Of a stretch of DNA of 64,000 bases, positions 3,846 through 63,051 are shown piece after piece (the stretch's first letter is position 1; each line of letters starts with the position of its first letter). Source of the stretch: an uncultured Bacilli bacterium (GTDB lineage Bacteria > Bacillota_I > Bacilli_A > RF39 > UBA660); the NCBI GenBank assembly GCA_910586195.1, contig CAJUHO010000003.1, positions 2,529 to 66,528 of the forward strand. Reading direction: 5' to 3'. A program made the translations under genes and the position numbers. The notes under the pieces are model-generated. The model ran no database searches and was not told the origin of the DNA. It saw only the letters and a program-made list of their open reading frames with translations.

Positions 3846-3931
3846 TTGATTCACTCCTTCCGCCATGACAAGTTTATGTCATAGTAATTAAATGCGTTAT
3901 TAATATATCAAACTTTTTTATATTTGGCAAG

Positions 3932-4645
3932 TTAATACTCTATATTTTCTACAATTTTTTGGTAAATATACTCATATCCCTCTATGGAAGGATGAATATT
4001 AAAAGGATTCGGTAAATAATTTTGATAAGGGAAGTCTTCATACAAACTAACATAATCAATAGACATATCTATACCAATTTGTTGATATTTTTTATCCAAC
4101 TCTTTAAATAATAAATCATATTGTTCATTTTTGGGATATAAATTATAATAACCGATTAAAATAATTTTTTTATTATATTTTTGAATTTCATTGATTAATT
4201 CTATTAAGTTATCTCCCACTCCGTTGACAATATCTCTATATTTTTTCTCTACCATTACTTCACTCATAATATTTACTTGACTTATAATATCGTTAGCGCC
4301 AATGGAAAGTGTAATAATATCAGAATCTCTCAAACTACTTTTAATACCGATTGTCTCTCCGTTAATATACACTTTTTTATTTAATAGTATATCCTGATAC
4401 ACATCCTTTATTCTGGCATCTGTTGCTGCAAATTTTTTAGTATATAATTTTAAATTGTGATTTTCTGCTAAATAGTTTGATAAATAATCACTATAACCAT
4501 AGGCAACTTCTCCATAAGGATTTTCTCCTAAAGCAAAGGAATCTCCTAAAGCCAAATATGTAATATTGTCTGTTGGAACATAAGTGTAGATTAAATATAC
4601 AGTAATACAGACTATTACACAAAAAATTAGTTTTATATGTTTCAT
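3932..4645 (-). CDS. SGNH/GDSL-family hydrolase with N-terminal signal/TM
   Basis: GDSFALG block I motif; GANDI block; C-terminal catalytic His region. Confidence 0.7.
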   Translation of the reverse strand: MKHIKLIFCVIVCITVYLIYTYVPTDNITYLALGDSFALGENPYGEVAYGYSDYLSNYLAENHNLKLYTKKFAATDARIKDVYQDILLNKKVYINGETIGIKSSLRDSDIITLSIGANDIISQVNIMSEVMVEKKYRDIVNGVGDNLIELINEIQKYNKKIILIGYYNLYPKNEQYDLLFKELDKKYQQIGIDMSIDYVSLYEDFPYQNYLPNPFNIHPSIEGYEYIYQKIVENIEY

Positions 4646-4675
4646 AGTGCCTCCAAAAAAAGAGAGTATATAAGA

Positions 4676-5929
4676 TTATATTTCTTTACTCTCTATTTTA
4701 GCACCGACGCTTGTAAGTTTTTCTACAATTTGTTCATAACCTCTTAAAATATGTTCAATATTGGTAATAGTTGTTTTGCCACTGGCAATTAAGCCTGCTG
4801 CTACCATCGCCGCTCCTGCTCTCAAATCTGTTGCTTTTACTCTTGTCCCAATCAATTCTGTTGGACCATAAATTGTAGCTGATTGAGATGATAAAGATAT
4901 TTCTGCTCCCATAGCTTGTAAATATGGTAAATGCATAAAACGATTTTCCCAAATTGTCTCTGTTACTTTGCTTTTTCCACTACATTGTGTTAGCAATACA
5001 GAAAATGGTTGCTGTAAGTCTGTTGGGAATCCAGGATAGACTAAGGTTTTTAAATTAGTAGCATGATATGAGTCTTTTTTACTAATGATAATATAATCAT
5101 CCCCTATATCCATATCTGCACCAATTTCCTGTAACTTGGAAATTAAAGAATCAATATGTTCTGGAATAATATTATCAATTTTTAAAATTTTTCCGCATAA
5201 AGCACCTATAATTAAGTAAGTTCCTGCTTCTATTCTATCTGGAATCACCTCATGAAAACAACCATGTAATTCTTCTACACCCGTAATTTTAATTGTTGAT
5301 GTTCCAGCACCTGTGATTTTTGCTCCCATATTGTTTAAAAGTGTGGCCACATTTACAATCTCAGGCTCTTTTGCTGCATTATCAATCTCTGTTATTCCTT
5401 CTGCACGTACAGCTGCTAACATTATATTAATCGTAGCACCTACACTTGCAATATCCAAATAAATATTATTTCCTCTTAAATGTTGTGCCCGTACTGTATA
5501 TTTATTTCCTTCATTAGTAACAGTAGCACCTAAAGCTTCAAATCCTTTTAGATGCAAATCAATTGGACGTTCTCCAATAGAACAGCCACCAGGAAAATAC
5601 ATCGTTACCTCTTTATATTTTCCTAATAATGCTCCCATAAAATAATATGACGCTCTAAGCTTTTTAGATAATTCCTCTGGAATTGCCCTATTCTTTATTG
5701 TTTTAGGATCAATGATAATACTCTCACTGGCTCTTTTTACATTAGCACCTAAAAACTGTAAAATTTCTGTTAATGAATTGATATCTGTGATATCAGGAAT
5801 ATTACAAATTGTAACGTCCTCCATAGCTAAAAGTGCCGCAGGAATCAAGGCCACAGCACTATTTTTAGCGCCACTTACTCGAATTGTTCCACTAAGCTCT
5901 TGTTCCCCAATAATTTCTAATACTTTCAT
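4676..5929 (-). CDS. murA: UDP-N-acetylglucosamine 1-carboxyvinyltransferase
   Basis: Full-length EPSP-synthase-fold MurA with SGAKNSA and catalytic Cys loop (GGCSIGERPID); start at MKVLEI. Confidence 0.93.
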   Translation of the reverse strand: MKVLEIIGEQELSGTIRVSGAKNSAVALIPAALLAMEDVTICNIPDITDINSLTEILQFLGANVKRASESIIIDPKTIKNRAIPEELSKKLRASYYFMGALLGKYKEVTMYFPGGCSIGERPIDLHLKGFEALGATVTNEGNKYTVRAQHLRGNNIYLDIASVGATINIMLAAVRAEGITEIDNAAKEPEIVNVATLLNNMGAKITGAGTSTIKITGVEELHGCFHEVIPDRIEAGTYLIIGALCGKILKIDNIIPEHIDSLISKLQEIGADMDIGDDYIIISKKDSYHATNLKTLVYPGFPTDLQQPFSVLLTQCSGKSKVTETIWENRFMHLPYLQAMGAEISLSSQSATIYGPTELIGTRVKATDLRAGAAMVAAGLIASGKTTITNIEHILRGYEQIVEKLTSVGAKIESKEI

Positions 5930-28748: not shown

Positions 28749-29642
28749 TTAATTTAATTTCATAATTTCTAATAGTCTGTTTAAATCGTTATCATTTGCA
28801 AAAGAAATTTCCAATTTTCTACCTTTGATTCTAATCTTAGTTCCCAATTTCTCTCCTATTGATTCCTGTAATTGTACGTAATGTTCATTCATTGGTTCCT
28901 TTTGTCTGTGAATTTTATTTTTCCGCTCAAATGTATCAGTAGAAGATGTTAAATCTTCTAATTCTCGAACACTTAAGTGTTCTTTTGTTACCTTATCAGC
29001 AAGATCAGAAATTTTTTCAGCATCTTCTAATTTACTTAATACTCTGGCATGGCCCATCGAAATATTATTTTCGACTACCATATTTTTGACAGATTCTGGT
29101 AAATTTAGAAGTCCTAACATATTCGTAATATGACTTCTACTCTTTCCTAAACGTTTTGCTAAAGCATCTTGTGTTAAACTTAGATTTTCTAGCAATTTTT
29201 TATAGGCAATAGCCTCTTCTAAGGCACTTAAATTTTCACGCTGAAGATTTTCTAATAAGGCAATTTCCATCATTTCACTATCTGTAAAATCACGAACAAT
29301 TGCAGGAATCTCTTCAAGACCTGCTAAAAGCGAGGCCTTTACTCTACGCTCCCCTGCAATAATTTCATAACCTTTGATACTTTTTTTTACAATAATTGGC
29401 TGAAATACACCATGTTCTTTAATGGAAGCTGCTAATTCATTTAATGTCTCTTCATTAAAGTTTTTTCGAGGTTGATATGGATTACTACGTAATTCTTTCA
29501 ACGGAACTTTAACTATTTCTTCTTTTGGAGTCGTCGTAACTATTTTTTCTTCCATTTTTTCATAATCGATTGGTTCATTATTAAAAAGTTCTTCTAGTCC
29601 TCTCCCTAATGCTCTTCTTTTAGGTGTTTCCATTGCGTTCAA
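28749..29642 (-). CDS. spo0J: chromosome partitioning protein ParB/Spo0J
   Basis: ParB box GERRVKAS and HTH TQDALAKRLGKSRSHITN; downstream of soj. Confidence 0.92.
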   Translation of the reverse strand: MNAMETPKRRALGRGLEELFNNEPIDYEKMEEKIVTTTPKEEIVKVPLKELRSNPYQPRKNFNEETLNELAASIKEHGVFQPIIVKKSIKGYEIIAGERRVKASLLAGLEEIPAIVRDFTDSEMMEIALLENLQRENLSALEEAIAYKKLLENLSLTQDALAKRLGKSRSHITNMLGLLNLPESVKNMVVENNISMGHARVLSKLEDAEKISDLADKVTKEHLSVRELEDLTSSTDTFERKNKIHRQKEPMNEHYVQLQESIGEKLGTKIRIKGRKLEISFANDNDLNRLLEIMKLN

Positions 29643-30408
29643 TCACTTCCTTTGCTAAATTTAAATAAGCTGCTGATCCTCTACTTTTTGGATCATATGC
29701 AATAATAGGTTCTCCATGCGATGGTGCCTCTGTTAAACGAATTAGTCTAGGTATAATTGTATTATAAACACGTTCTTTAAAAAATTTACGAATATCATCT
29801 ACTACTTCAAATCCTAAATTTGTTCTAGAATCTAACATTGTTAACAATACTCCTTCAATATCTAAATCTGGATTTAATGTTTTTTGAGCGAGCATAATAG
29901 TATTTAATAATTGCATAATTCCCTCTAATGCAAAGAATTCACACTGAACAGGAATAATTACTGAATTAGATGCTGTTAATGCATTTGTTGTGATAAGTCC
30001 TAATGATGGTGGACAATCGATAATAATATAATCAAAATTTTCTCTTACTTCATCAATATATTTTTTTAGTTGTGCTCCTTTTGCAAAACCTGGTTCATGT
30101 TGACTTTTTTCTAATAATTCAATATCAAGACCTGCTAAATTAATTGTTGCTGGCATTACATATAAATTCTTATACTTTGTTTTTACCATTGCTTCATCCA
30201 AACTACACTTTTCAGTTAAGACATCATAAATTGATTTATCGATATCTCCTTTATTAATACCAACTCCTGTTGTAGTATTTCCCTGTGGATCTAAATCAAT
30301 CAATAAAACTTTTTTCCCTAATACGGCAAGGGATGCAGAAAGGTTAATACTTGTCGTTGTTTTTCCTACTCCACCCTTTTGATTAACTAATGAAATAACC
30401 TTTCCCAT
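29620..30408 (-). CDS. soj: chromosome partitioning ATPase ParA/Soj
   Basis: Deviant Walker A KGGVGKTT; start placed at MGKVISL after an AAAAGGTGA RBS. Confidence 0.93.
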   Translation of the reverse strand: MGKVISLVNQKGGVGKTTTSINLSASLAVLGKKVLLIDLDPQGNTTTGVGINKGDIDKSIYDVLTEKCSLDEAMVKTKYKNLYVMPATINLAGLDIELLEKSQHEPGFAKGAQLKKYIDEVRENFDYIIIDCPPSLGLITTNALTASNSVIIPVQCEFFALEGIMQLLNTIMLAQKTLNPDLDIEGVLLTMLDSRTNLGFEVVDDIRKFFKERVYNTIIPRLIRLTEAPSHGEPIIAYDPKSRGSAAYLNLAKEVIERNGNT

Positions 30409-30514
30409 TCTATCACCTTTTCTTTTGTCTGTATAATTACTAATATATTGTATCAAAAGATACCAATTTTTAAAATGCTTTTGTCGAAAAAAAGTAGATT
30501 TCTCTACTTTCATA

Positions 30515-31912
30515 TTAATTATTTTTATTAATCTTTATGACAATTTGATAAGAATTTTCAAAATCAATTTCATCACTATCAACCTGCAATCCTTGTCTTT
30601 CTAATTGCTTTATCTGATCTCTAATGCTATTTATAGCATCTTTAATCGTTATTGGTCTATCTTCATATGACGGCTTTCTCTCATTGTAAGATGTTAAATT
30701 TCTGTTACTACCTGGTATATTTTCAAAGAAACTATTAATTTCTGCTGCATCATGATCTGTTTTTTTCGAGTTGGATTTAGAGGAAGGTTTGGTATCTGTA
30801 TCCAAGGGAGAGAAAAATTTAAATGATGGTTGTACTTCTTCTTCCTCCTCACCTTCATCCTCTGAAATTGGCACTGGGCTAATTTTTAATAAACTATCCA
30901 AATCTGCAATATTCTTCGCTGCATCATTCATAGTTTCATTAATATCTTTCGTATTTGATTTTAAGGCTGCAATATCTACTGGGCTTGCGGCTGAGGAAGT
31001 TCCAAAAGAAAAACCTTCTTCTTCATCGTCATCATCTTCATCCGGATCAATTTCCCCATAATTAATAAATTTTGGCAATTCTTCTGGTTTTTCCTTTGGT
31101 ATATCCATTGGTTTACTTTGTGCAAACACATCATTTTTCATATAATTAGGATTTCCGTCAATACTATCCATAAGCTTTGGTCTTTCTATCTCTTCTGCAA
31201 AAGAATGTCCTAATTGTATATCATCATTTGGAATTCGTAAATTAGGCACCTTAATATCTTTTGGATTTTCAATATTTTTATTTGGAACTAAATCTTCATT
31301 TCTAATTTCTTCTTTTTTTACTTCCTGTTCTAATTCACGTACAGTCATTCTAGACTCTATTACTTTATTTAACATATCCTTTTGTTCTTCTGGATTTTCA
31401 AAATTTAAAAGAGTTCTAGCATGTCGCTCAGAAATCTGTTCTTTTAGTAAAGCTTGTTGAACATCCTCCGTTAAAGCTAATAGACGTAATTTATTTGCCA
31501 CTGCTGATTGGCTTTTTCCCATTGTTTTAGCAAGTTCTTCTTGCGTCATTTGATCTAATTCTAATATTTTTTGGTAAGTTCTAGCTTCTTCAACTGGATT
31601 TAAATTTTTTCTTTGCAGATTTTCAAGCAAAGCTACTTTAGAACTTTCTTTATCATCTAAGTTACGAACAATAGCTGGAATTTTTGTAAGTCCTGCTAAA
31701 GCAGATGCTTTATAACGACGTTCTCCTGCTATTATTTCATATTTATTTCCAATATTTCTTACAATAATTGGCTGTATTACACCATGTTCTTTAATAGAAA
31801 TTGCTAATTCTTTTAAGGCTCTATCATCAAAAACTTCTCTTGGTTGAAACCTATTTGGTATAATATCATCTAAATGTAAATATACTACTTCATTATCTGA
31901 ATGCATATACAT
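30515..31912 (-). CDS. noc: Noc-like ParB-family protein with roughly 200-aa acidic, low-complexity C-terminal extension
   Basis: N-terminal ParB domain (GERRYKAS, HTH QEELAKTMGKSQSAVANK) in the rsmG-noc-soj position; C-terminal DPDEDDDDEEEG / EDEGEEEEE acidic tracts. Confidence 0.8.
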   Translation of the reverse strand: MYMHSDNEVVYLHLDDIIPNRFQPREVFDDRALKELAISIKEHGVIQPIIVRNIGNKYEIIAGERRYKASALAGLTKIPAIVRNLDDKESSKVALLENLQRKNLNPVEEARTYQKILELDQMTQEELAKTMGKSQSAVANKLRLLALTEDVQQALLKEQISERHARTLLNFENPEEQKDMLNKVIESRMTVRELEQEVKKEEIRNEDLVPNKNIENPKDIKVPNLRIPNDDIQLGHSFAEEIERPKLMDSIDGNPNYMKNDVFAQSKPMDIPKEKPEELPKFINYGEIDPDEDDDDEEEGFSFGTSSAASPVDIAALKSNTKDINETMNDAAKNIADLDSLLKISPVPISEDEGEEEEEVQPSFKFFSPLDTDTKPSSKSNSKKTDHDAAEINSFFENIPGSNRNLTSYNERKPSYEDRPITIKDAINSIRDQIKQLERQGLQVDSDEIDFENSYQIVIKINKNN

Positions 31913-38899: not shown

Positions 38900-39151
38900 T
38901 TAAAAGTTATAATTTATTATTTTATTTTTCCACGATTTCAACAGATATGTGGATTATTTTTTTCACTATGTGTATAAAAAATTGTGGAAAATGTGGAAAA
39001 GTACTTTTCATTATTTAAATTCAATCACTAAATTTGTGGAAAAGATTGTGAATATCCTGTGAATTTATTTTTTTCGATTAAAATTGTTTATTTTTTCAAC
39101 AATTTGAGATACACTATTTTTAAGTTTTTAAGTTGTGGGGAGAGGGTATGA
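38900..39151. promoter_or_regulatory. oriC left DnaA-box cluster and dnaA promoter region
   Basis: TTTTCCACG at 38925-38933; TGTGGATTA at 38947-38955; TGTGGAAAA at 38982-38990, 38991-38999 and 39034-39042; each within one mismatch of TTATCCACA. Confidence 0.8.
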
Positions 39152-40519
39152 ATGAACGTAGAAATTTTATGGTCAAAATTTTTATCAACAATCAAAAATG
39201 AACTTTCCTCTCTTTCTTTTAATATTTGGTTTAAAGATACAGAACTTTATAAATTAGAAGAGGAAAAAGCAATTATTATCGTTCCAATGCCAATTCATAA
39301 AAAGCATTTACCTGATAATTATTCCGAAATTATTATTAGCACTCTAAATCAGATTACTGGTACAAATTTTGAACTTGAATTTCTCTTAAAAGAGGAGATG
39401 GAAGCAGAACCTAAGGAGGAGCTTTTTCCACCACAAACAATTAGTGAAGGCGTTCCCTCTACAAATCTTATTCAAACCAACTTAAAAAAGCAGTATACTT
39501 TTGAAAATTTCTATGTAGGAAACAGTAATAAATTTGCACAAGCAGCAGCACTTTCTGTAGCAGAAAATCCGGGTAAAATGTATAATCCCTTATTTATTTA
39601 TGGAAATAGTGGTCTCGGGAAGACTCATTTAATGCACGCTATTGGAAACTATATTGTTGAAAATAGTAATAGGCGTGTTTTATATGTTACAAGTGATCAA
39701 TTTATTGAAGATTTTATTGGTATTAATAAAAAAAATAAAAAAGAAGCAAATTTTGACTGTGTAGATTTCTTTAAAAATAAATATCGTAATATCGATGTGT
39801 TAATAATCGATGATATTCAGTTCTTAGGGCCTGCTACACAATCTCAGCAAGAATTCTTTCATACTTTTAATTCTCTTTATAGCGATTCTAAACAAATTAT
39901 TATATCTTCCGATCGTTCCCCAGATGATTTAAAACTCTTAGAAGATAGACTTAGAACCCGTTTTTGTTGGGGATTAACTGTAAATATTTTTCCACCAGAC
40001 TTTAATCTTCGAGTCGAAATTTTAAAGAAAAAAATAGCAGCAGGCAACTTTGAGAAGGAAATTCCACAAGATGTTGTGGAATATATTGCTTCCAATATTG
40101 GAAATGATGTTCGGCAGCTTGAGGGCTCCATCACTCGTTTGATTGCATATTCTACCATAATGAGTGGAGCAGAAATCAATCTAGATTTAGCAATTGACGC
40201 TTTAAAAGACTTTATTAGTAAGGGAATCTGTGAAAAAAATGATATCCATAGAATTCAGCGAATTGTTTCTGAATACTTTCAAATTTCAGTGGAAGATATT
40301 AGAAGTAAAAAGAGAAGCGCTAATATTGCATTTCCTAGGCAGATTGCCATGTATCTGTGTAGAACAACCACCAGTGAATCTTTTCCTAAAATAGGAACAG
40401 AGTTTGGGGGAAAAGACCATTCTACCGTTATGCACTCTGTTGAGAAGATTGAAAATGAAATTAAGGTAAATAAAGATTTAGCAAATATTATTGAAAAATT
40501 AAAAAAGGATATTGAATAG
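39152..40519 (+). CDS. dnaA: chromosomal replication initiator DnaA
   Basis: AAA+ Walker A GNSGLGKTHL and C-terminal DnaA signature helix. Confidence 0.97.
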   Translation: MNVEILWSKFLSTIKNELSSLSFNIWFKDTELYKLEEEKAIIIVPMPIHKKHLPDNYSEIIISTLNQITGTNFELEFLLKEEMEAEPKEELFPPQTISEGVPSTNLIQTNLKKQYTFENFYVGNSNKFAQAAALSVAENPGKMYNPLFIYGNSGLGKTHLMHAIGNYIVENSNRRVLYVTSDQFIEDFIGINKKNKKEANFDCVDFFKNKYRNIDVLIIDDIQFLGPATQSQQEFFHTFNSLYSDSKQIIISSDRSPDDLKLLEDRLRTRFCWGLTVNIFPPDFNLRVEILKKKIAAGNFEKEIPQDVVEYIASNIGNDVRQLEGSITRLIAYSTIMSGAEINLDLAIDALKDFISKGICEKNDIHRIQRIVSEYFQISVEDIRSKKRSANIAFPRQIAMYLCRTTTSESFPKIGTEFGGKDHSTVMHSVEKIENEIKVNKDLANIIEKLKKDIE

Positions 40520-40660
40520 GGGATGTGGATAATTTTTACTTATTATTTTACTTTTCCACAAACTTTATTGTAAAATAATACTTGTAAATTCGTTTTAAAA
40601 AAAGTTTTGAACTTTTTCCACAGTAATAATAACAATAAAAAATAAGAAAGAAGGAATATT
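40520..40660. promoter_or_regulatory. oriC right DnaA-box cluster and AT-rich unwinding region
   Basis: Perfect TGTGGATAA at 40523-40531; TTTTCCACA at 40551-40559 and 40613-40621; A/T-rich spacer. Confidence 0.8.
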
Positions 40661-45774: not shown

Positions 45775-48228
45775 ATGGATAGATTAGAAAAGAATAATAT
45801 TGTAAATGAGATTCGAAATTCCTTTTTAGAGTATTCTATGAGTGTTATTGTAGCACGTGCATTACCAGATTTACGTGATGGACTTAAACCAGTTCATCGT
45901 AGAATTCTATATTCAATGTATGAGTCTGGTTATACGCCTGATAAACCTCATAAAAAGAGTGCAAAAACTGTCGGAGAAGTTATGGGGAATTACCATCCAC
46001 ATGGGGACTCTAGTATTTATGAAGCTATGGTTCGTATGGCACAGGATTTCTCCTATCGTTATATGTTAGTAGATGGTCATGGTAACTTTGGTAATATCGA
46101 AGGTTACGGTGCAGCGGCTATGCGTTATACAGAGTCTCGTCTTTCTAAGATTTCGTTAGAACTTCTTAGAAATATTAATAAAAATACTGTTGATTTTGTA
46201 CCAAATTTTGATGAGACAACAAAAGAACCTACTGTTTTACCTTCTCGTTTTCCTAACATTTTAGTAAATGGAACGATGGGAATTGCAGTTGGTATGGCTA
46301 CTAATATTCCTCCCCATAATTTGGGAGAAGTGATAGATGGGTGTATTGCTTATATTGATAATCCAGATATTGATGTTGATGGTTTAATGAAATATATTAA
46401 AGGTCCTGATTTTCCTACTGGTGCTACAATCCTTGGAAATAGTGGAATAAGAAAGGCTTATGAAACAGGACGAGGTAGTATTACTATTCGTAGTAAGGCA
46501 CGAATTGAGGAAGATAAAGGAAAACATTATATTATTGTTGATGAGGTTCCATATGGAATTAATACTCTTGATTTAAAAAATAAAGTAGCGGATTTAGTTC
46601 ATAATAAGGTTATTGATGGTATTGCAGATTACCATACTGATTTAAAAGATGGTATTAAGATTACTATTACTTTGAAAAAAGATGCTAATCCTCAAGTAGT
46701 ACTTAATAACTTATATAAACATACCGCCTTTCAAAATAATTTTGGTATTATTTTCTTAATGTTAGATCAAGGTGTTCCAAAAACTCTTGGATTGAAAGAT
46801 ATTATCTCTAAATATGTGGATTATCAAAAGGAAATTATTATTCGCCGGACAAAGTTTGATTTGGCTAAGGATGAAGCTAGGGCCCATATTTTAGAGGGAT
46901 TAAAGATTGCACTTGATCATATTGATGCCATTATTGCATTAATTAAGGCTTCTAAAAGTGATGAAGAGGCTATGAATGGTCTGATGAGTAAGTATCATCT
47001 ATCAGAAGCTCAATCTCAGGCAATTTTAGAGATGAAATTAAGAAGATTGACTGGATTAGAACGAGATAAGATTGAAAATGAACTTGCTGCTTTGCTCGCT
47101 GAGATAGAGGAATTGAAATCGATTCTTGCTAGTGAAGAGAAAGTATTACAGATTATTAAGGATGAAATGACGGAAATTAAGAATAAATATGGTGATGAAC
47201 GTCGCACTGATATTGATATGACTGCTATTGAATATATTGAGGATGAATCATTAATCCCTGTAGAAGATATTATTGTTACTTTGACGAATAATGGCTATGT
47301 TAAAAGATTAAAGTCAGATACTTATCGTGCACAAAATCGAGGTGGCGTTGGTGTTAAGGGTATGGCAACTAATGAAGAAGACTTCGTAAAACATCTCATT
47401 AATATGAAAACACATGATTATATTCTTTTCTTTTCAAATAAGGGAAGGGTATATCGATTGAAAGGATATGAAATACCAGAATTTAGCAGACAATCTAAAG
47501 GACTGCCAATTATTAATTTGTTATCTTTAGATAAAAACGAAAACATTAGTTCGATTGTTAAGGTAGCTGCAGAGAGTGAAGAAAATAATTTCTTATTATT
47601 TACAACGAAAAATGGTTTAGTTAAACGTACGGCAATGGAAGAATTTGATAGTATTCGTAGAGGTGGAAAGATTGCTATTATTTTAAAAGATGATGATGAG
47701 TTGATTAATGTTTCTAAAACAAATGGTGAGAATGAAGTTGTTTTAGGTGCAAGTAATGGACGAATGGTACGTTTTAATGAACAGGAAGTTAGAGTAATGG
47801 GAAGAGGTACTTCTGGTGTTAGAGGTATGGATTTAGATGGTAGTCATATTGTTGGTGCAGAAGTTGTTACGCCAGAGCAATTAATTTTAATTGTAACGGA
47901 AAATGGTTATGGAAAACAAACTGAGATTAATGAGTATCGTTTAACTCATCGTGGTAGTAAGGGAGTAAAGGCTCTTAATGTTACAGAAAAAAATGGAAGC
48001 ATGGTAGCACTTAATTGTGTGGATGTTACAAAGGAACAAGATTTAATTATTGTCAGTGATAGTGGTATTGTTATGAGGATGCCATTAGAACAAGTTTCTA
48101 CATTGAGAAGGGCAACACAAGGAGTTAGATTGATTCATTTGAAAGATAATCAAAGGGTAGCAACTGTAACAATTGTGGAAAAAGAAAAATCAGAGGATAT
48201 AACAGAAGAGGAAAAAGTGGAAAACTAA
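45775..48228 (+). CDS. gyrA: DNA gyrase subunit A
   Basis: Active-site Tyr region [24 protein letters not shown]-terminal beta-pinwheel repeats. Confidence 0.97.
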
Positions 48229-48395
48229 AAGTCCACTTTTTTTGTGGAAAAGTAAAATAATTAGTTGCTTTTTTTTATGAGTTATATTAAAATGTAATCG
48301 GTACAATGAATATGTTGGAACTAGGTCAGGATCGGAAGATAGCAGCCTTAACAAATTTTATTCATGTGTACCATTTTTTATGGAGTGAATTATCT

Positions 48396-48860
48396 ATGTA
48401 TAATGAGAAGTTTATGAAGGTGGCAATTGAAGAGGGGAAAAAAGCTTTATTATGCGATGAAGTACCTATAGGTGCTGTTATTGTAAAAGATGATAAAATT
48501 ATTTCCCAAGCATTTAACAGAAAAAATAAAAGTAATATAGTAACTAGGCATGCAGAGATCATCGCAATTGAGGAAGCTAATCGTATTTTTAATAATTGGC
48601 GTTTGTGTGATTGTGATATATATGTAACTTTAGAGCCCTGTCCGATGTGCATGAGTGCTATACAGCAAGCTAGAATAGCTAATGTTTATTATGGATTATC
48701 AAATAGGAATCAGGAAAATAGAGATATAATTAGTGTTATTGCAGGAAAAAGTCATATAAATCCAAGTGTAAATTTATCTGGAGGTTATATGAGCAAGGAA
48801 GTATCATTACTAATGACATCTTTTTTTAAGAAAAGACGAATTATTAGCGATGATAAATGA
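48396..48860 (+). CDS. tadA: tRNA-specific adenosine deaminase TadA
   Basis: HAEIIAIEEA and PCPMC zinc-binding CDA motifs; start chosen at MYNEKFMKVAIEEG, the ORF-track start 48306 being probably too early. Confidence 0.85.
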   Translation: MYNEKFMKVAIEEGKKALLCDEVPIGAVIVKDDKIISQAFNRKNKSNIVTRHAEIIAIEEANRIFNNWRLCDCDIYVTLEPCPMCMSAIQQARIANVYYGLSNRNQENRDIISVIAGKSHINPSVNLSGGYMSKEVSLLMTSFFKKRRIISDDK

Positions 48861-48875
48861 AAGTAATTACTTATA

Positions 48876-49824
48876 AATTATTTCCCGGGAAATAATTTTT
48901 TTAATTCTATGTCCTTAATTATTTTAATTTTATGGAGTTTTTGTATTAGAATTATTTCCCAAAAAACAATCGTATTATTTGATTATAATCATATATTTAT
49001 ATTAATATGATTTTCTTTTCTACTGATTATAAGTATTGAATTTAATGTTTCACGTGAAACATTAAACCATATAATAAATAAATTAGCATCATAAAATGAT
49101 AAAAATTATTTCCCGGGAAATAACTTTTTTAATTCTATATCTTTAACTGTTTTATATTAAAAGAAGTTAAATATAATAATTTTCTTAATTTTTTTATTTT
49201 ATGGTGTTTATAAACTTAAAGACACAATGTATTTTAATATTAGAATTATTTCCCAAAAACAATCGTATTGTTTAATTATAATCATATATTCATATTAATA
49301 TGGTTTTCTTTTCTATTGATAATAAGCATCCAATTTAATGTTTCACGTGAAACATTAAACTATATTAATAGGTAAATTAGTTTCATAAAACGATAAAAAA
49401 TTATTTCCCGGGAAATAATTTGGTACTTCTTATATGATTTACTATTGTTTATTATGATTATATTCATATTAGTATGTTATGTTTTTTTTGATAATAAGCA
49501 TCCAATTTAATGTTTCACGTGAAACATTGAACTATATTAATAGGTAAATTAATTTCATAAAACGATAAAAAATTATTTCCTGGGAAATAATTTGGTACTT
49601 CTTATGATTTACTATTGTTTATTATGATTATATTTATATTAGTATGTTATGTTTTTTATTAATTATAAGCATCTGATTTAATGCTTCATATGAAAGATTG
49701 AACTGTATTAATAGGTAAATTAGTTTCATAAAATAATAAAAATTATTTCCCGGGAAATAATTTTTGCGTGTTATATCGATGGAATAATTAATGTTTCACG
49801 TGAAACATTAATTATTTTTTTTAG
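48876..49824. repeat. tandem array of at least four degenerate 175-290 bp units, each holding two perfect palindromes: P1 AATTATTTCCCGGGAAATAATT and P2 AATGTTTCACGTGAAACATT
   Basis: P1 at 48878, 49105, 49400, 49573 (one mismatch) and 49745; P2 at 49046, 49339, 49510, 49790, with a degenerate copy near 49678; the DNA between palindromes is also conserved between units; P1 is usually followed by a T-run. Confidence 0.85.
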
Positions 49825-49926
49825 AGATATTAAAAAATATTTTTTTGTTTGAAATAAGTATAATAATTCAAATAAATTGTGATATACTTAATTGGACAAG
49901 TTATATAATGTAAGGGGAGTGATTGA

Positions 49927-51621
49927 ATGTATCAAGCTTTATATAGAAAATATAGACCATTGTTGTTTTCTGATGTGGTAGGACAAACCTCAATTGTAAA
50001 AATATTAAAAAACTCTATTTTAAATAATCAGGTGGGACATGCCTATTTGTTTTTTGGATCTCGTGGAACTGGAAAAACATCATTGGCTAAAATATTTGCT
50101 CGTACTATTAATTGTTCGCATTTGAACAATGGTGAAATTTGTTGTGAATGTGATTCCTGTAAAGAAATGATAGGTGAGAAGTCTGTAGATATAATTGAAA
50201 TTGATGCAGCATCAAATAATGGTGTGGATGAAATTCGTGAGTTACGGAGTAAGGTGAATTTGGTTCCTAATCAATTGAAATATAAGGTTTATATTATTGA
50301 TGAGGTTCATATGCTTTCTATAGGTGCGTTTAATGCATTACTAAAAACATTAGAGGAACCTCCTGAGCATATTGTGTTTGTTTTGGCTACTACTGATCCT
50401 CAAAAGGTTCCAGATACTATTAAATCTAGATGTCAATGTTTTAATTTTAAACGCATTAGTGATGAACATATTGTTCAAAAGTTGGAAGAAATATGTGATG
50501 CTGAAAAGATAAATGTGGAAAAATCGATTTTACAAAGTATTGCTTCATTTTCAAATGGTGGTATGAGGGATTCACTTAGTTCTTTGGATATGTTATATTC
50601 TGCCTGTGGAAAAAATATTACGATGCAGGATTATATTGAAATAAATAATTTGATAGATAATAATGAGTTGAAAATCCTTTTGGAGGAAATTTTATCTGGC
50701 AATGTGGAAAACTTTTTAAAACATATTGAGAAAGTTAATTCTTATGGAAAAAATATTGTTCAGATTTTTGAATTGATGCTAAAACAGGGGAGAGATATTT
50801 TAGTGAATCATTATGTAAATAATACCTCTTGTGATTATGATTTGGCTTTGCTAGAAGATTTTGTGTTTTACTTAAATGAGCATTTGTTTGATATTAAGAA
50901 GGCATCTAATTCTAGGATATATGTTGAAATAATGATTTTGAAATTTATTAATGAAAAAATATTAGATAAGAGTGAAGAACAAATTATTTCCCGGGAAATA
51001 ATTTGTAAACAAACGTTCGATAATGAGACAGAAGTTTCAAAAAATGATTTTTTGGAAGAGGAAAAGTCAGAAAATATTTCTATAAGTTTAAAAGAAAACT
51101 TTGATAATGATAATTCCTATGATAAAATAGAAAATGATTTCTTACAAAAGTATAAAAATCTTATGGATATACGTGTAAACAATACTCTTTGTAAAGCGGA
51201 TAAAAATGTTTTACTGTCTGTAAAGAAAAATATGGAAAAGTTAAAGGAGTATGTTTTTGATCAAAAAATCGGATATTTAGTTTGTTCTTTAATGGATGGC
51301 ACAATTCGTGTTGCTAGTGAGGAAAATATTTTAATTAGCGTTGAGTATGATTCTATGGTTGATTCTAATATAAAGAACATAGATAAATTAAAGGACGCAT
51401 TATTTCAGATTACAGGATTGACTCAAAATTTGGTTTTTATTACAGATGAATGTTGGGTTTCTAAAAAGCAAGAGTATATTCAACGGATGCAAAGTGGCGA
51501 GAGTTATCAGTATCTTTCAGAGCCTGAACTGCCTATTATGCCAGAGAAAGATTGTAAGAAAAATGAATTAGTAGAACATGCCATAGAATTATTTGGTGAT
51601 ATAGTAGAGGAGGAAAAATAG
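49927..51621 (+). CDS. dnaX: DNA polymerase III subunit gamma/tau
   Basis: AAA+ Walker A GSRGTGKTS, zinc module CxxC...CxxC, SRC motif; carries an internal 24-bp perfect palindrome at 50981-51004. Confidence 0.95.
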   Translation: MYQALYRKYRPLLFSDVVGQTSIVKILKNSILNNQVGHAYLFFGSRGTGKTSLAKIFARTINCSHLNNGEICCECDSCKEMIGEKSVDIIEIDAASNNGVDEIRELRSKVNLVPNQLKYKVYIIDEVHMLSIGAFNALLKTLEEPPEHIVFVLATTDPQKVPDTIKSRCQCFNFKRISDEHIVQKLEEICDAEKINVEKSILQSIASFSNGGMRDSLSSLDMLYSACGKNITMQDYIEINNLIDNNELKILLEEILSGNVENFLKHIEKVNSYGKNIVQIFELMLKQGRDILVNHYVNNTSCDYDLALLEDFVFYLNEHLFDIKKASNSRIYVEIMILKFINEKILDKSEEQIISREIICKQTFDNETEVSKNDFLEEEKSENISISLKENFDNDNSYDKIENDFLQKYKNLMDIRVNNTLCKADKNVLLSVKKNMEKLKEYVFDQKIGYLVCSLMDGTIRVASEENILISVEYDSMVDSNIKNIDKLKDALFQITGLTQNLVFITDECWVSKKQEYIQRMQSGESYQYLSEPELPIMPEKDCKKNELVEHAIELFGDIVEEEK

Positions 51622-61289: not shown

Positions 61290-61510
61290 TTGATTGTTTT
61301 GATGGAGAGTTTAATAGATAGCATTAGTTAAGAGAGTTCTTGTTGGTGGAAATAGAATCTAATGAACTATTAGATATGGCTTCTGAACTATTAAGTTGAT
61401 AAGTAAGCTTAATCGTTTAATAGGCGTTAACTATTTGAGTGTATAATGAACATTATAAAATAAGGTGGTACCGCGAAGATTCGTCCTTATGTTATAATGT
61501 TTTTTGTGTC
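61290..61510 (+). ncRNA. T-box riboswitch leader (Met-specific by context) upstream of metG
   Basis: Conserved T-box sequence AAGGTGGTACCGCG at 61462-61475; AGAGAG stem-I box near 61330; extended -10 TGATATAAT at 61273-61281; terminator T-run before the RBS. Confidence 0.7.
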
Positions 61511-61527
61511 TATATGGGAGGGATTTT

Positions 61528-63051
61528 ATGAAAGATAAATTTTATATTTCGACAGCTATTACTTATACATCAGGGAAACCACATATTGGGAATACGTATG
61601 AAGTTATTTTAGCAGATGCTATTGCACGCTATAAACGATTGAAGGGTTATGATGTATATTTTCAGACTGGAACGGATGAACATGGCTTGAAAATAGAAGA
61701 TAAAGCTCGTGAAAGTGGACAGACTCCACAACAATTTGTAGATACTATTGCTACAGAAATTAAAAGAATTTGGGATTTGATGAATACTAGTTATGATAAA
61801 TTCGTTAGAACTACGAATCCTCATCATAAAGAGATTGTTCAAAAAATTTTTAAGAAATTATACGATCAAGGAGATATTTATAAAGGCGAATATAAGGGGC
61901 TTTATTGTAAACCTTGTGAATCCTTTTTTACAGATAGTCAATTAGTAGATGGAAAATGTCCGGATTGTGGGCGTGTAGTTGAAGAAGCATGTGAGGAGGC
62001 TTATTTCTTTAGATTAAGCAAGTATCAAAAACAATTAGAAGAATATATTGAAACACATCCTCATTTTATTGAACCAGTTTCTCGTAAAAATGAAATGATT
62101 AATAATTTTTTGAAGCCAGGATTGCAAGATTTATGTGTATCTAGAACTACTTTTGATTGGGGGGTTCCTGTTGACTTCGATTTAAATCATGTGGTTTATG
62201 TTTGGATTGATGCATTATCAAATTATATTACATTTTTAGGGTATGATCCTGATGGTTCTAGTGAAGAATTTCGAAAGTATTGGCCAGCTGATATTCATTT
62301 GATTGGAAAAGATATTTTAAGATTTCATACATTGTATTGGCCTATTTTATTAATGGCTTTGGATTTAGAGTTACCAGAGAGAATTTTTGGACATCCATGG
62401 CTTTTAATGAATAATGATAAGATGAGTAAAAGTAAAGGTAATGTAATTTATGCTGACGATTTAGTAGAAAAGTTTGGAGTGGATGCTGTTCGTTATTATT
62501 TGATTCATGAAATTCCATTTTCTAGTGATGGTAATATTACTTATGAGTTATTAATAGAACGTATTAATGGGGATCTTGCTAATATTCTAGGTAATTTGGT
62601 GCAAAGAACAATTTCAATGGTGAATCAATATTTTAGTGGTCATATTGAAAATTCTCATGTCGATGATCCTAAAGATGAAGAAATATTTACATTAATGAAT
62701 GAGTTAGATGCTAAGGTGGAAGCGAAGATGAATTCTTTGGAAGTAAGTGCGGCGGTTGATGAAGTATTTACATTATTAAGGGCTAGTAATAAATATATTG
62801 ACGAGACAATGCCTTGGGTACTTGCTAAAGATGAAGAAATGAAATTGCGTCTAGAAACCGTTTTGTATAATTTGTTAGAGTCTATTCGGATCTGTGCTGT
62901 TTTTTTAGAACCTATTATTCCGGATACTAGTCGAGAAATATTATTTCAGTTACAAATAGAAAATAAAAGTTTGTCATATCAGGATAATTTAATTTATGAA
63001 GTAGGAACTCCAAGACCTATTTTTAAAAGAATTAACAAGGATAGTTTTTAA
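61528..63051 (+). CDS. metG: methionyl-tRNA synthetase (short form, no C-terminal tRNA-binding domain)
   Basis: KMSKSKGN motif, zinc knuckle CKPCE...CPDCG; HIGH motif reads HIGN; start at MKDKFY after a GGGAGGG RBS. Confidence 0.92.
   Translation: MKDKFYISTAITYTSGKPHIGNTYEVILADAIARYKRLKGYDVYFQTGTDEHGLKIEDKARESGQTPQQFVDTIATEIKRIWDLMNTSYDKFVRTTNPHHKEIVQKIFKKLYDQGDIYKGEYKGLYCKPCESFFTDSQLVDGKCPDCGRVVEEACEEAYFFRLSKYQKQLEEYIETHPHFIEPVSRKNEMINNFLKPGLQDLCVSRTTFDWGVPVDFDLNHVVYVWIDALSNYITFLGYDPDGSSEEFRKYWPADIHLIGKDILRFHTLYWPILLMALDLELPERIFGHPWLLMNNDKMSKSKGNVIYADDLVEKFGVDAVRYYLIHEIPFSSDGNITYELLIERINGDLANILGNLVQRTISMVNQYFSGHIENSHVDDPKDEEIFTLMNELDAKVEAKMNSLEVSAAVDEVFTLLRASNKYIDETMPWVLAKDEEMKLRLETVLYNLLESIRICAVFLEPIIPDTSREILFQLQIENKSLSYQDNLIYEVGTPRPIFKRINKDSF

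Follow-up and report, generated by a model that had tools for sequence, protein, structure and literature searches.

The DNA analysed here, a stretch of 64,000 nucleotides referred to throughout as the window, comes from an uncultured Bacilli bacterium (assembly GCA_910586195.1, contig CAJUHO010000003.1). The non-coding gap between its tadA and dnaX genes (48861-49926) is made up of a tandem array (48876-49824) that carries two palindromes, P1 and P2. The published consensus of parS is TGTTTCAC-GTGAAACA and that of the Noc-binding site (NBS) is TATTTCCC-GGGAAATA (Jalal et al. 2020, PMC7383237). P2, TGTTTCACGTGAAACA, matches the consensus parS, the loading site of ParB, at 16 of 16 positions, and the match of P1, TATTTCCCGGGAAATA, to the consensus NBS, the site bound by Noc, is equally complete (16/16; PMC7383237). 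A pattern search of the window with the P2 core found four perfect copies against 0.25 expected, a number reached in none of 100 shuffled sequences; the P1 core is present in five perfect copies, four in the array and one in dnaX, and in one further copy with a single mismatch. All matches to either motif with up to three mismatches in the 64-kb window lie either within the array or at the site in dnaX, so that five NBS occupy 0.9 kb, one lies in dnaX and none is found in the other ~62 kb. The array and its sites are as follows (listed without strand, and found by pattern search unless another source is given):

48876-49824: the whole array, five tandem units in which NBS (N) and parS (P) alternate, giving N P N P N P n (p) N P, with lower case marking the mismatched and the decayed copy
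48879-48894: NBS-1, perfect TATTTCCCGGGAAATA (PMC7383237 consensus), with the extended palindrome AAATTATTTCCCGGGAAATAATTT
48950-48965, with a second copy at about 49244-49259: NBS half-site AATTATTTCCCAAAAA, a probable remnant (repeat family and inverted repeats)
49046-49061: parS-1, perfect TGTTTCACGTGAAACA (PMC7383237 consensus)
49107-49122: NBS-2, perfect
49339-49354: parS-2, perfect
49402-49417: NBS-3, perfect
49511-49526: parS-3, perfect
49574-49589: NBS-4, with one mismatch (CCCGGG to CCTGGG)
49682-49697: decayed parS, TGCTTCATATGAAAGA, with four mismatches (repeat and strain comparison)
49744-49759: NBS-5, perfect
49792-49807: parS-4, perfect
50985-51000: solitary perfect NBS inside dnaX, encoding IISREII in a hypervariable linker

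The original prediction, made from the sequence without database searches, had described a tandem array of about 950 bp built on two palindromes, and pattern searches, Tandem Repeats Finder (TRF), a repeat finder and a BLAST self-comparison all agree with it. Its inventory of five P1 copies (one of them mismatched), four perfect P2 copies and a decayed fifth P2 was likewise correct, with coordinates good to 1-2 bp, as was the statement that every CCCGGG of the window lies within the P1 palindrome; one of these copies lies outside the array, in dnaX (50985-51000). By TRF the array has a period of 172 bp, with 2.9 copies that are 90% identical. With the repeat finder, the units fall into families of 124 nt (four copies, 62-96% identity), 117 nt (two copies, 90%) and 55 nt (two copies, 98%), in addition to one of 82 nt, and the BLAST comparison of the array with itself gives matches at 79-91%. 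The earlier figure of 85-95% identity between units therefore holds within the sub-families but not between them. The half-sites AATTATTTCCCAAAAA, which are common to both long units, are probably the remnants of earlier full NBS; in other species, too, 9-mers of NBS half-sites turn up repeatedly in the spacers. The two site types, parS and NBS, are ~50-230 bp apart in the window and typically 20-120 bp apart in other species.

Such arrays are widespread. One genome per species, in a collection of 185,579 species, was scanned for a parS core followed 30-60 bp further on by an NBS core, and this paired pattern was found at no fewer than 120 loci (at least 120; loci are numbered with the prefix L below), where chance would be expected to yield ~0.01 by our own arithmetic from the collection size and the pattern length. 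Among the matches listed, nearly all are gut metagenome-assembled genomes (MAGs) labelled as uncultured Bacilli, Erysipelotrichaceae, "Mycoplasma" or "Tenericutes"; Candidatus Onthousia, of Bacilli incertae sedis, is a named relative, and those closest to the window have 76-78% nucleotide identity to it over gyrBA. Most of the arrays among these listed matches alternate strictly. The longest strictly alternating arrays have 25 sites each (L045 and L074), other long arrays have 22 (L027), 18 (L071) and 14 (L087), and the permutation probability of the alternation in these five is no higher than 0.005. Other types of array exist, in which a unit contains one NBS and two parS or in which a run of parS has NBS at its edges; parS-rich arrays with one or two NBS at the run ends were noted in L040 (NPPPPPN), L052 (NPPPPN), L137, L146, L089, L111 and L005. 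The unit length varies from species to species (76, 79, 83, 84, 105, 126 or 172 bp) and the spacers are unrelated. The genomic position is shared: tblastn searches of the matches listed with the window's proteins detected gyrA (83 loci), dnaX (77) and tadA (96), nearly all of the listed arrays are flanked by gyrA, dnaX or tadA, and their GyrA is 56-84% identical to that of the window. Of the listed loci, 64 have the array upstream of tadA, 14 have it downstream, as the window does, and 18 have it on both sides. An interleaved parS/NBS array is thus conserved at the gyrA-tadA-dnaX interval across at least 120 species of uncultured gut Bacilli. As a control, 80 metagenome loci were picked by DnaX similarity alone, and the 58 of them for which 1 kb or more of sequence was available upstream were used. 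In 52 of these 58, mostly from higher-GC bacteria, there is neither a parS nor an NBS upstream of dnaX; the six loci that have sites come from low-GC relatives, and five of the six carry both types.

Within the species of the window itself, the identical array is found in two independent assemblies, and two further assemblies differ by one unit. Since independent assemblies agree, and since long-read circular MAGs of other species (L003 and L074) carry such arrays, the array is not an assembly artefact. The strains L122 and L124 have one ~170-bp unit fewer; they have a perfect copy of the equivalent NBS and retain the decayed parS. In strain L126 the parS equivalent to the decayed copy at 49682-49697 is perfect. 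The copy number of the array is therefore dynamic within the window's own species. In the decayed unit (49574-49589 and 49682-49697) the central changes all occur at CpG (CCCGGG to CCTGGG and CACGTG to CATATG), which looks like the deamination of methylated cytosine. Short-read assemblies often end inside arrays (L124-L127 and the genome loci L001, L010, L012, L016 and L045), and because they break there, many MAGs of this lineage probably lack the putative centromere and its oriC-proximal junction or contain them in collapsed form. In L102 a 208-aa open reading frame spans the entire array (4520-5113), because ISREI and VSRET are the in-frame readings of NBS and parS, and arrays of this kind are thus at risk of being misannotated as repeat proteins.

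The sites themselves are sharply defined. A survey with a scaffold common to both motifs (T-N-TTTC-N-CG-N-GAAA-N-A) returned 718 matches, of which 367 are pure NBS, 344 pure parS and seven something else, and among all 718 there is not one parS/NBS chimera or drifting intermediate. Most of the perfect NBS in the surveyed sequence (320 of the 367) lie within arrays. In twelve species with a unit of ~126 bp, all 24 columns of the extended NBS are at least 90% identical and the parS columns 80-99%, whereas the spacers are 30-70% identical. A search of the spacers for a third conserved motif gave none: the best 9-mer is present in only 14 of 121 loci, and those ranking highest are purine-rich strings or NBS half-sites. 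Each site type has a density of ~2.8 per kb inside arrays; outside them, in 910 kb of flanking sequence, there are 1.7 parS and 5.2 NBS per 100 kb, and most such NBS are the dnaX site. As far as sequence comparison can tell, selection keeps both palindromes intact and not the spacers between them.

The solitary NBS inside dnaX is itself a conserved feature. The perfect 16-mer is present in ~30 species, 1.0-1.2 kb from the start of dnaX and always in one frame (for instance at position 2298 of L018, 4993 of L064, 4045 of L035, 2700 of L008, 3920 of L044 and 4978 of L114, with ~20 more). It codes for (I/N)ISREI(I/F) inside an otherwise hypervariable linker, and all of its synonymous positions are fixed, which argues for a constraint on the DNA site. 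In L116, dnaX contains an additional in-frame parS (NVSRET) 54 bp beyond the NBS.

Candidate readers for both motifs are encoded within the window, in an operon on the other side of the replication origin, and are listed here together with the oriC region and an RNA gene:

28749-29642, minus strand: ParB/Spo0J, 297 aa, with residues R, M, N and G at the specificity positions and an N-terminal LGRGL motif
29620-30513, minus strand: ParA/Soj ATPase (Pfam and NCBIfam matches)
30515-31912, minus strand: Noc-like paralogue of ParB, 465 aa (the start is probably two codons later), with residues Q, K, A and R at the specificity positions
38948-40622, without strand: oriC region, with clusters of DnaA boxes to either side of dnaA and a sign change of the GC skew
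48290-48388, plus strand: RNA gene of the signal recognition particle (SRP), bacterial small type (Rfam RF00169, 65.8 bits), between gyrA and tadA

The best match of the 297-aa protein among solved structures is Spo0J (219 bits, against 168 for Noc) and that of the 465-aa protein is Noc (206 bits, against 174 for Spo0J). Four positions switch the specificity of these proteins, which have R and G in ParB and Q173, K179, K184 and R201 in Noc (PMC7383237). The combination of R173 and G201 is parS-specific and invariant in ParB orthologues, and a single lysine, at 179 or 184, is enough for NBS specificity (PMC7383237). At these four positions, R, M, N and G are present in the window's ParB and Q, K, A and R in the Noc-like protein; both proteins retain the GERR motif, which binds cytidine triphosphate (CTP), and the catalytic ENLQR motif. 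Each palindrome accordingly has a predicted cognate reader encoded in the window. The suggestion of a binding-site array for an unknown dimeric regulator had therefore been right as to the array, given the 16/16 consensus matches, but the binders need not be called unknown, ParB and a Noc-like protein being the candidates. In public annotation the latter bears the generic name "ParB/RepB/Spo0J family".

The N-terminal amphipathic helix of Noc was found to be extremely conserved in all homologues examined in a 2015 study (PMC4331003), and it is required for membrane binding and function (PMC4331003, PMC8429893). In the window's Noc-like protein this helix is absent, because the alignment starts with its residue 7 opposite Noc residue 26-28 and the reading frame cannot be extended upstream. 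The same holds for its relatives. The PNRFQPR motif begins at residue 15-19 in the 119 close homologues that carry it (430-507 aa) and at residue 13-21 in most of a wider sample of the 150 best family representatives at 50% identity (221-798 aa), in almost all of which the N-terminal domain starts within the first few residues. These 150 representatives have kept the residues predicted to read the NBS (Q in 150, K179 in 147 and R201 in 149) and the GERR motif (150). By sequence, then, the absence of the helix is a trait of the family and not a peculiarity of the window's gene. In an AlphaFold2 (AF2) model of the Noc-like protein, the N-terminal and DNA-binding domains (residues 9-206) and a small C-terminal domain are confidently predicted; between them lies a linker of ~210 residues (~207-415) for which the per-residue confidence score (pLDDT) is below 50. 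The composition of this linker is acidic, with an abundance of N, E, P and S, and short motifs within it are conserved among members of the close subfamily: PKFIN[YF]GEI with an acidic run after it, ADLDSLL[KR], xFKFFSP and D[IL]xSFFGN. Its sequence PSFKFFSPL resembles the N-terminal membrane motif of B. subtilis Noc, a likeness on which we base no claim, and its DLDSLL is reminiscent of the N-terminal GLDALL motif of ParB. PSFKFFSPL was considered as a relocated membrane-targeting motif and rejected: it is conserved in only 7 of the 150 representatives, those of the close subfamily, and AF2 models the region as disordered.

The surroundings of the array and of the operon are those of a replication origin. 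To one side the window has rnpA-yidC-jag-mnmE-mnmG-rsmG and to the other dnaA-dnaN-recF-gyrB-gyrA, with DnaA-box clusters at 38948-39035 and 40524-40614 and a GC skew that flips at ~40 kb; the array is ~9 kb from oriC. Immediately past rsmG follow the genes of the 465-aa Noc-like protein, ParA and the 297-aa ParB, all with Pfam and NCBIfam matches, in an order that is that of gidB-noc-soj-spo0J in B. subtilis; those of ParB and the Noc-like protein lie 17-20 kb from the array within the same window. In relatives at 49% identity the operon context of the Noc-like gene is kept, and their 21-kb regions contain neither parS nor NBS. In one relative (L209 6356-9895; L210 1824-5363), rsmG is separated from the Noc-like gene by an inserted gene whose 1179-aa product has sigma-70 regions 2-4. 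The gene for SRP RNA, which had earlier been looked for in the tadA-dnaX gap and missed, is present on the other side of tadA, whose start (48396) is 7 nt past the end of the RNA. A T-box leader (61290-61491, plus strand, 110.8 bits) precedes an open reading frame at 61504-63051, and an L31-Firmicutes ribosomal-protein leader lies at 3854-3884 on the minus strand. Both are ordinary features of Firmicutes.

It is very probable, in our judgement, that the array is the centromere of the chromosome and that it is a composite platform on which two paralogous DNA clamps, both dependent on CTP, are loaded. Dimers of ParB would recognise parS, bind CTP, close as clamps and slide to the flanking DNA, and the resulting partition complex would work with ParA and, by analogy with B. 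subtilis, recruit SMC. The Noc-like paralogue would load at NBS, then close and slide likewise. Both clamp species would land on the same few kilobases ~9 kb from oriC and, because their loading sites are only tens to a few hundred bp apart, a single mixed nucleoprotein complex of ParB and the Noc-like protein would be expected; the binding and spreading of the two proteins at the array sites are inferred by analogy with their characterised homologues. Tandem duplication, unequal recombination and gene conversion would alter the copy number and the spacers. A Noc-like clamp that lacks the membrane helix could not act by the known occlusion mechanism, unless a membrane element is located elsewhere in the protein; instead its linker, with its conserved short motifs, may bring some other partner or activity to the origin, for example control of the division site or of replication. 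Our best guess is the hypothesis of an origin-anchored regulator rather than a nucleoid-wide one. Going further, we suggest only tentatively, as a serious possibility that may well prove wrong, that this clade of gut Bacilli has a two-reader centromere at which a "headless" Noc is deliberately co-loaded with ParB and regulates division, replication or the positioning of the origin. In addition, the array may be a record of how Noc and the NBS arose: the NBS could have been born from diverging duplicated copies of parS, only four substitutions away, within a centromere array, an origin that would predate both the membrane helix of Noc and the spread of its sites over the chromosome.

Several points weigh against this interpretation. 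The amplification of any two-site unit alternates automatically, so the alternation alone is no proof that interleaving has been selected. At least one locus, L131 of the control set, has a parS-only array, several arrays are parS-rich with just one or two NBS, and the frequency of parS-only arrays in relatives is not shown by a scan that required a parS-NBS pair. Position 184 of the Noc-like protein is A, not K, and its score with the NCBIfam model for Noc (TIGR04285), 293.6 bits, is below the cut-off of 315; the specificity of the protein is for these reasons deduced from three residues. Furthermore, since the spacing of the sites is variable and shows no robust helical phasing, it implies no fixed ParB-Noc geometry: no helical phasing was detected in the parS-parS periods (R = 0.06, p = 0.75), and an apparent signal between parS and NBS (R ~0.36-0.39) is alike at trial repeats of 10, 10.5 and 11 bp and is driven by related species that share a unit type. 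In the loci L001-L120, the distances from start to start between neighbouring parS and NBS are concentrated around 47, 58 and 69 bp, about half-integer numbers of helical turns.

Some of these same facts would be expected if the centromere consisted of parS only and a dispersed NBS had been caught by chance in an amplified unit, its interleaving being without function. Such neutral hitch-hiking would explain the alternation as a by-product of tandem amplification, and it fits with the difference in copy number between strains, with the parS-rich or parS-only arrays of some species and with the lone NBS elsewhere, such as that inside dnaX; the bias of a scan that selected for paired sites also leaves it some room. 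We nevertheless regard it as improbable: arrays of unlike unit lengths (76-172 bp) and with unrelated spacers all keep both sites, the NBS columns within arrays are conserved at least as well as the parS columns while the spacers diverge, and 320 of the 367 perfect NBS are in arrays, with no chimeras or drifting intermediates. Slightly less probable still is an insulating function, in which a Noc-like protein bound to the NBS would act as a roadblock that limits the sliding of ParB, or the reverse, and no joint complex with an output of its own would exist. Clamps of the ParB family are stopped by tightly bound proteins, and a roadblock would suit the arrays in which NBS are placed at the edges of a parS run (L040, L052, L137, L146 and L089) and the conserved lone NBS in dnaX ~1.1 kb downstream. 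The majority of arrays, however, alternate strictly and are not edge-flanked; the intact motifs for CTP binding and hydrolysis in the Noc-like protein lead one to expect sliding rather than a static block, and the conserved motifs of its linker suggest that it has a partner of its own.

We attach very little probability to the idea that ParB alone binds both palindromes and that its Noc-like paralogue is irrelevant to the array. The two sites do differ at just two positions per half-site, and ParB variants of dual specificity can be obtained in the laboratory, mostly with T or S at position 201 (PMC7383237), but the window's ParB has the R173/G201 combination that is specific for parS (PMC7383237), and the bimodal distribution of the sites, with no chimera in 718, fits two readers. 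Least probable of all, to the point of being hardly credible, is a function at the level of RNA or of a mobile element, although the original prediction had counted a small RNA or toxin-antitoxin locus in tandem copies, terminators acting in both directions and an element resembling a MITE (miniature inverted-repeat transposable element) among its candidates. The palindromes are able to form hairpins and P1 copies are followed by runs of T, but these runs belong to a symmetric extension of the palindrome, AAA...TTT, of which they form one half and which is conserved across species, and no terminator-like site was called in the array. Rfam at the gathering threshold finds in the whole window only the SRP RNA, the T-box and the L31 leader, all outside the array, and at E<=1 on 48200-50000 it gives no match within the array; the folding of one 172-nt unit yields z-scores of -1.55 and -0.44 on the two strands, and there is no conserved open reading frame. 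Promoters were likewise considered and rejected, the 23 promoter-like sites being no enrichment over the 19.1 +/- 4.8 of shuffled sequences. As to mobility, blastn searches of 72,556 plasmids and 50,697 phage records gave no match to the array, and the paired parS-NBS pattern is absent from viral contigs. A dispersed family of the REP, BOX, RUP or MITE kind was rejected, as the array DNA matches only the dnaX NBS elsewhere in the window and the locus is fixed across species; its spacers are not conserved between species and the locus has remained in place across a deep clade.

Both motifs and both protein families were already known, and the literature that we searched reports dispersed NBS and separate parS. 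The published work that we consulted, which included few papers from subscription journals, describes neither an interleaved parS/NBS array nor a Noc family devoid of the helix. As far as we have found, therefore, an alternating centromere for two clamps, at one locus in at least 120 species, and a branch of Noc without membrane helix have not been described. The units had originally been allowed the possibility of belonging to a known repeat family, and this turned out to be so for the two motifs and not for the architecture in which they are combined. ParB and Noc are the textbook case of a DNA-binding protein that was duplicated and changed its specificity, ParB marking the centromere and Noc the bulk nucleoid, which it ties to the membrane. 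A specialist would not have predicted that NBS should be clustered with parS, and here both site types share one array while the Noc-like protein is without the feature that defines the known mechanism of Noc. If the co-loading is functional, this would be a new centromere architecture, with two paralogous CTP-switch clamps, and a new job for the Noc branch. Either way, the arrays offer a natural system in which to study how NBS and Noc co-evolved from parS and ParB, of which only the protein side has been covered (PMC7383237), and they mark oriC-proximal DNA in the MAGs of a lineage that has no cultured members.

One of the known systems that come closest is the ParABS system of the B. subtilis type, with which the array shares a 16-bp consensus parS, a position near the origin, and a ParA and an R173/G201 ParB encoded beside rsmG near oriC; by analogy, CTP-dependent loading and sliding would be expected here as well. 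In B. subtilis the parS sites are single copies distributed over the origin-proximal region, one of them within spo0J. Here, in contrast, all the parS in 64 kb around oriC are in one intergenic tandem array, with none in the region of the par operon, and unlike those of B. subtilis they are interleaved with the sites of a second protein. With the Noc-NBS systems of B. subtilis as well as of S. aureus are shared the 16-bp NBS consensus, residues Q173, K179 and R201, the location of the gene after rsmG and intact CTP motifs. The NBS of B. subtilis are scattered and absent near the terminus (PMC7383237), and those of S. aureus are dispersed single sites at 41 loci, whereas here they reach ~2.8 per kb in a centromere array; and unlike canonical Noc, the protein family described here has no N-terminal helix and has a long disordered linker instead. 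The plasmid F offers, in sopC, a centromere of tandemly iterated sites. The chromosome of P. aeruginosa reportedly has its parS in a cluster of four sites (PMC4368675). Like these, our array consists of many clustered sites for a partition protein in non-coding DNA, in variable copy number, but sopC and the P. aeruginosa cluster serve one binding protein and the array alternates the sites of two paralogues. MipZ of Caulobacter, finally, is a ParA-like ATPase recruited through contact with ParB. The analogy with it would be functional only, in that a second activity at the segregating centromere could inform the placement of the division site; unlike MipZ, the second factor here is predicted to be a paralogue of ParB with DNA sites of its own.

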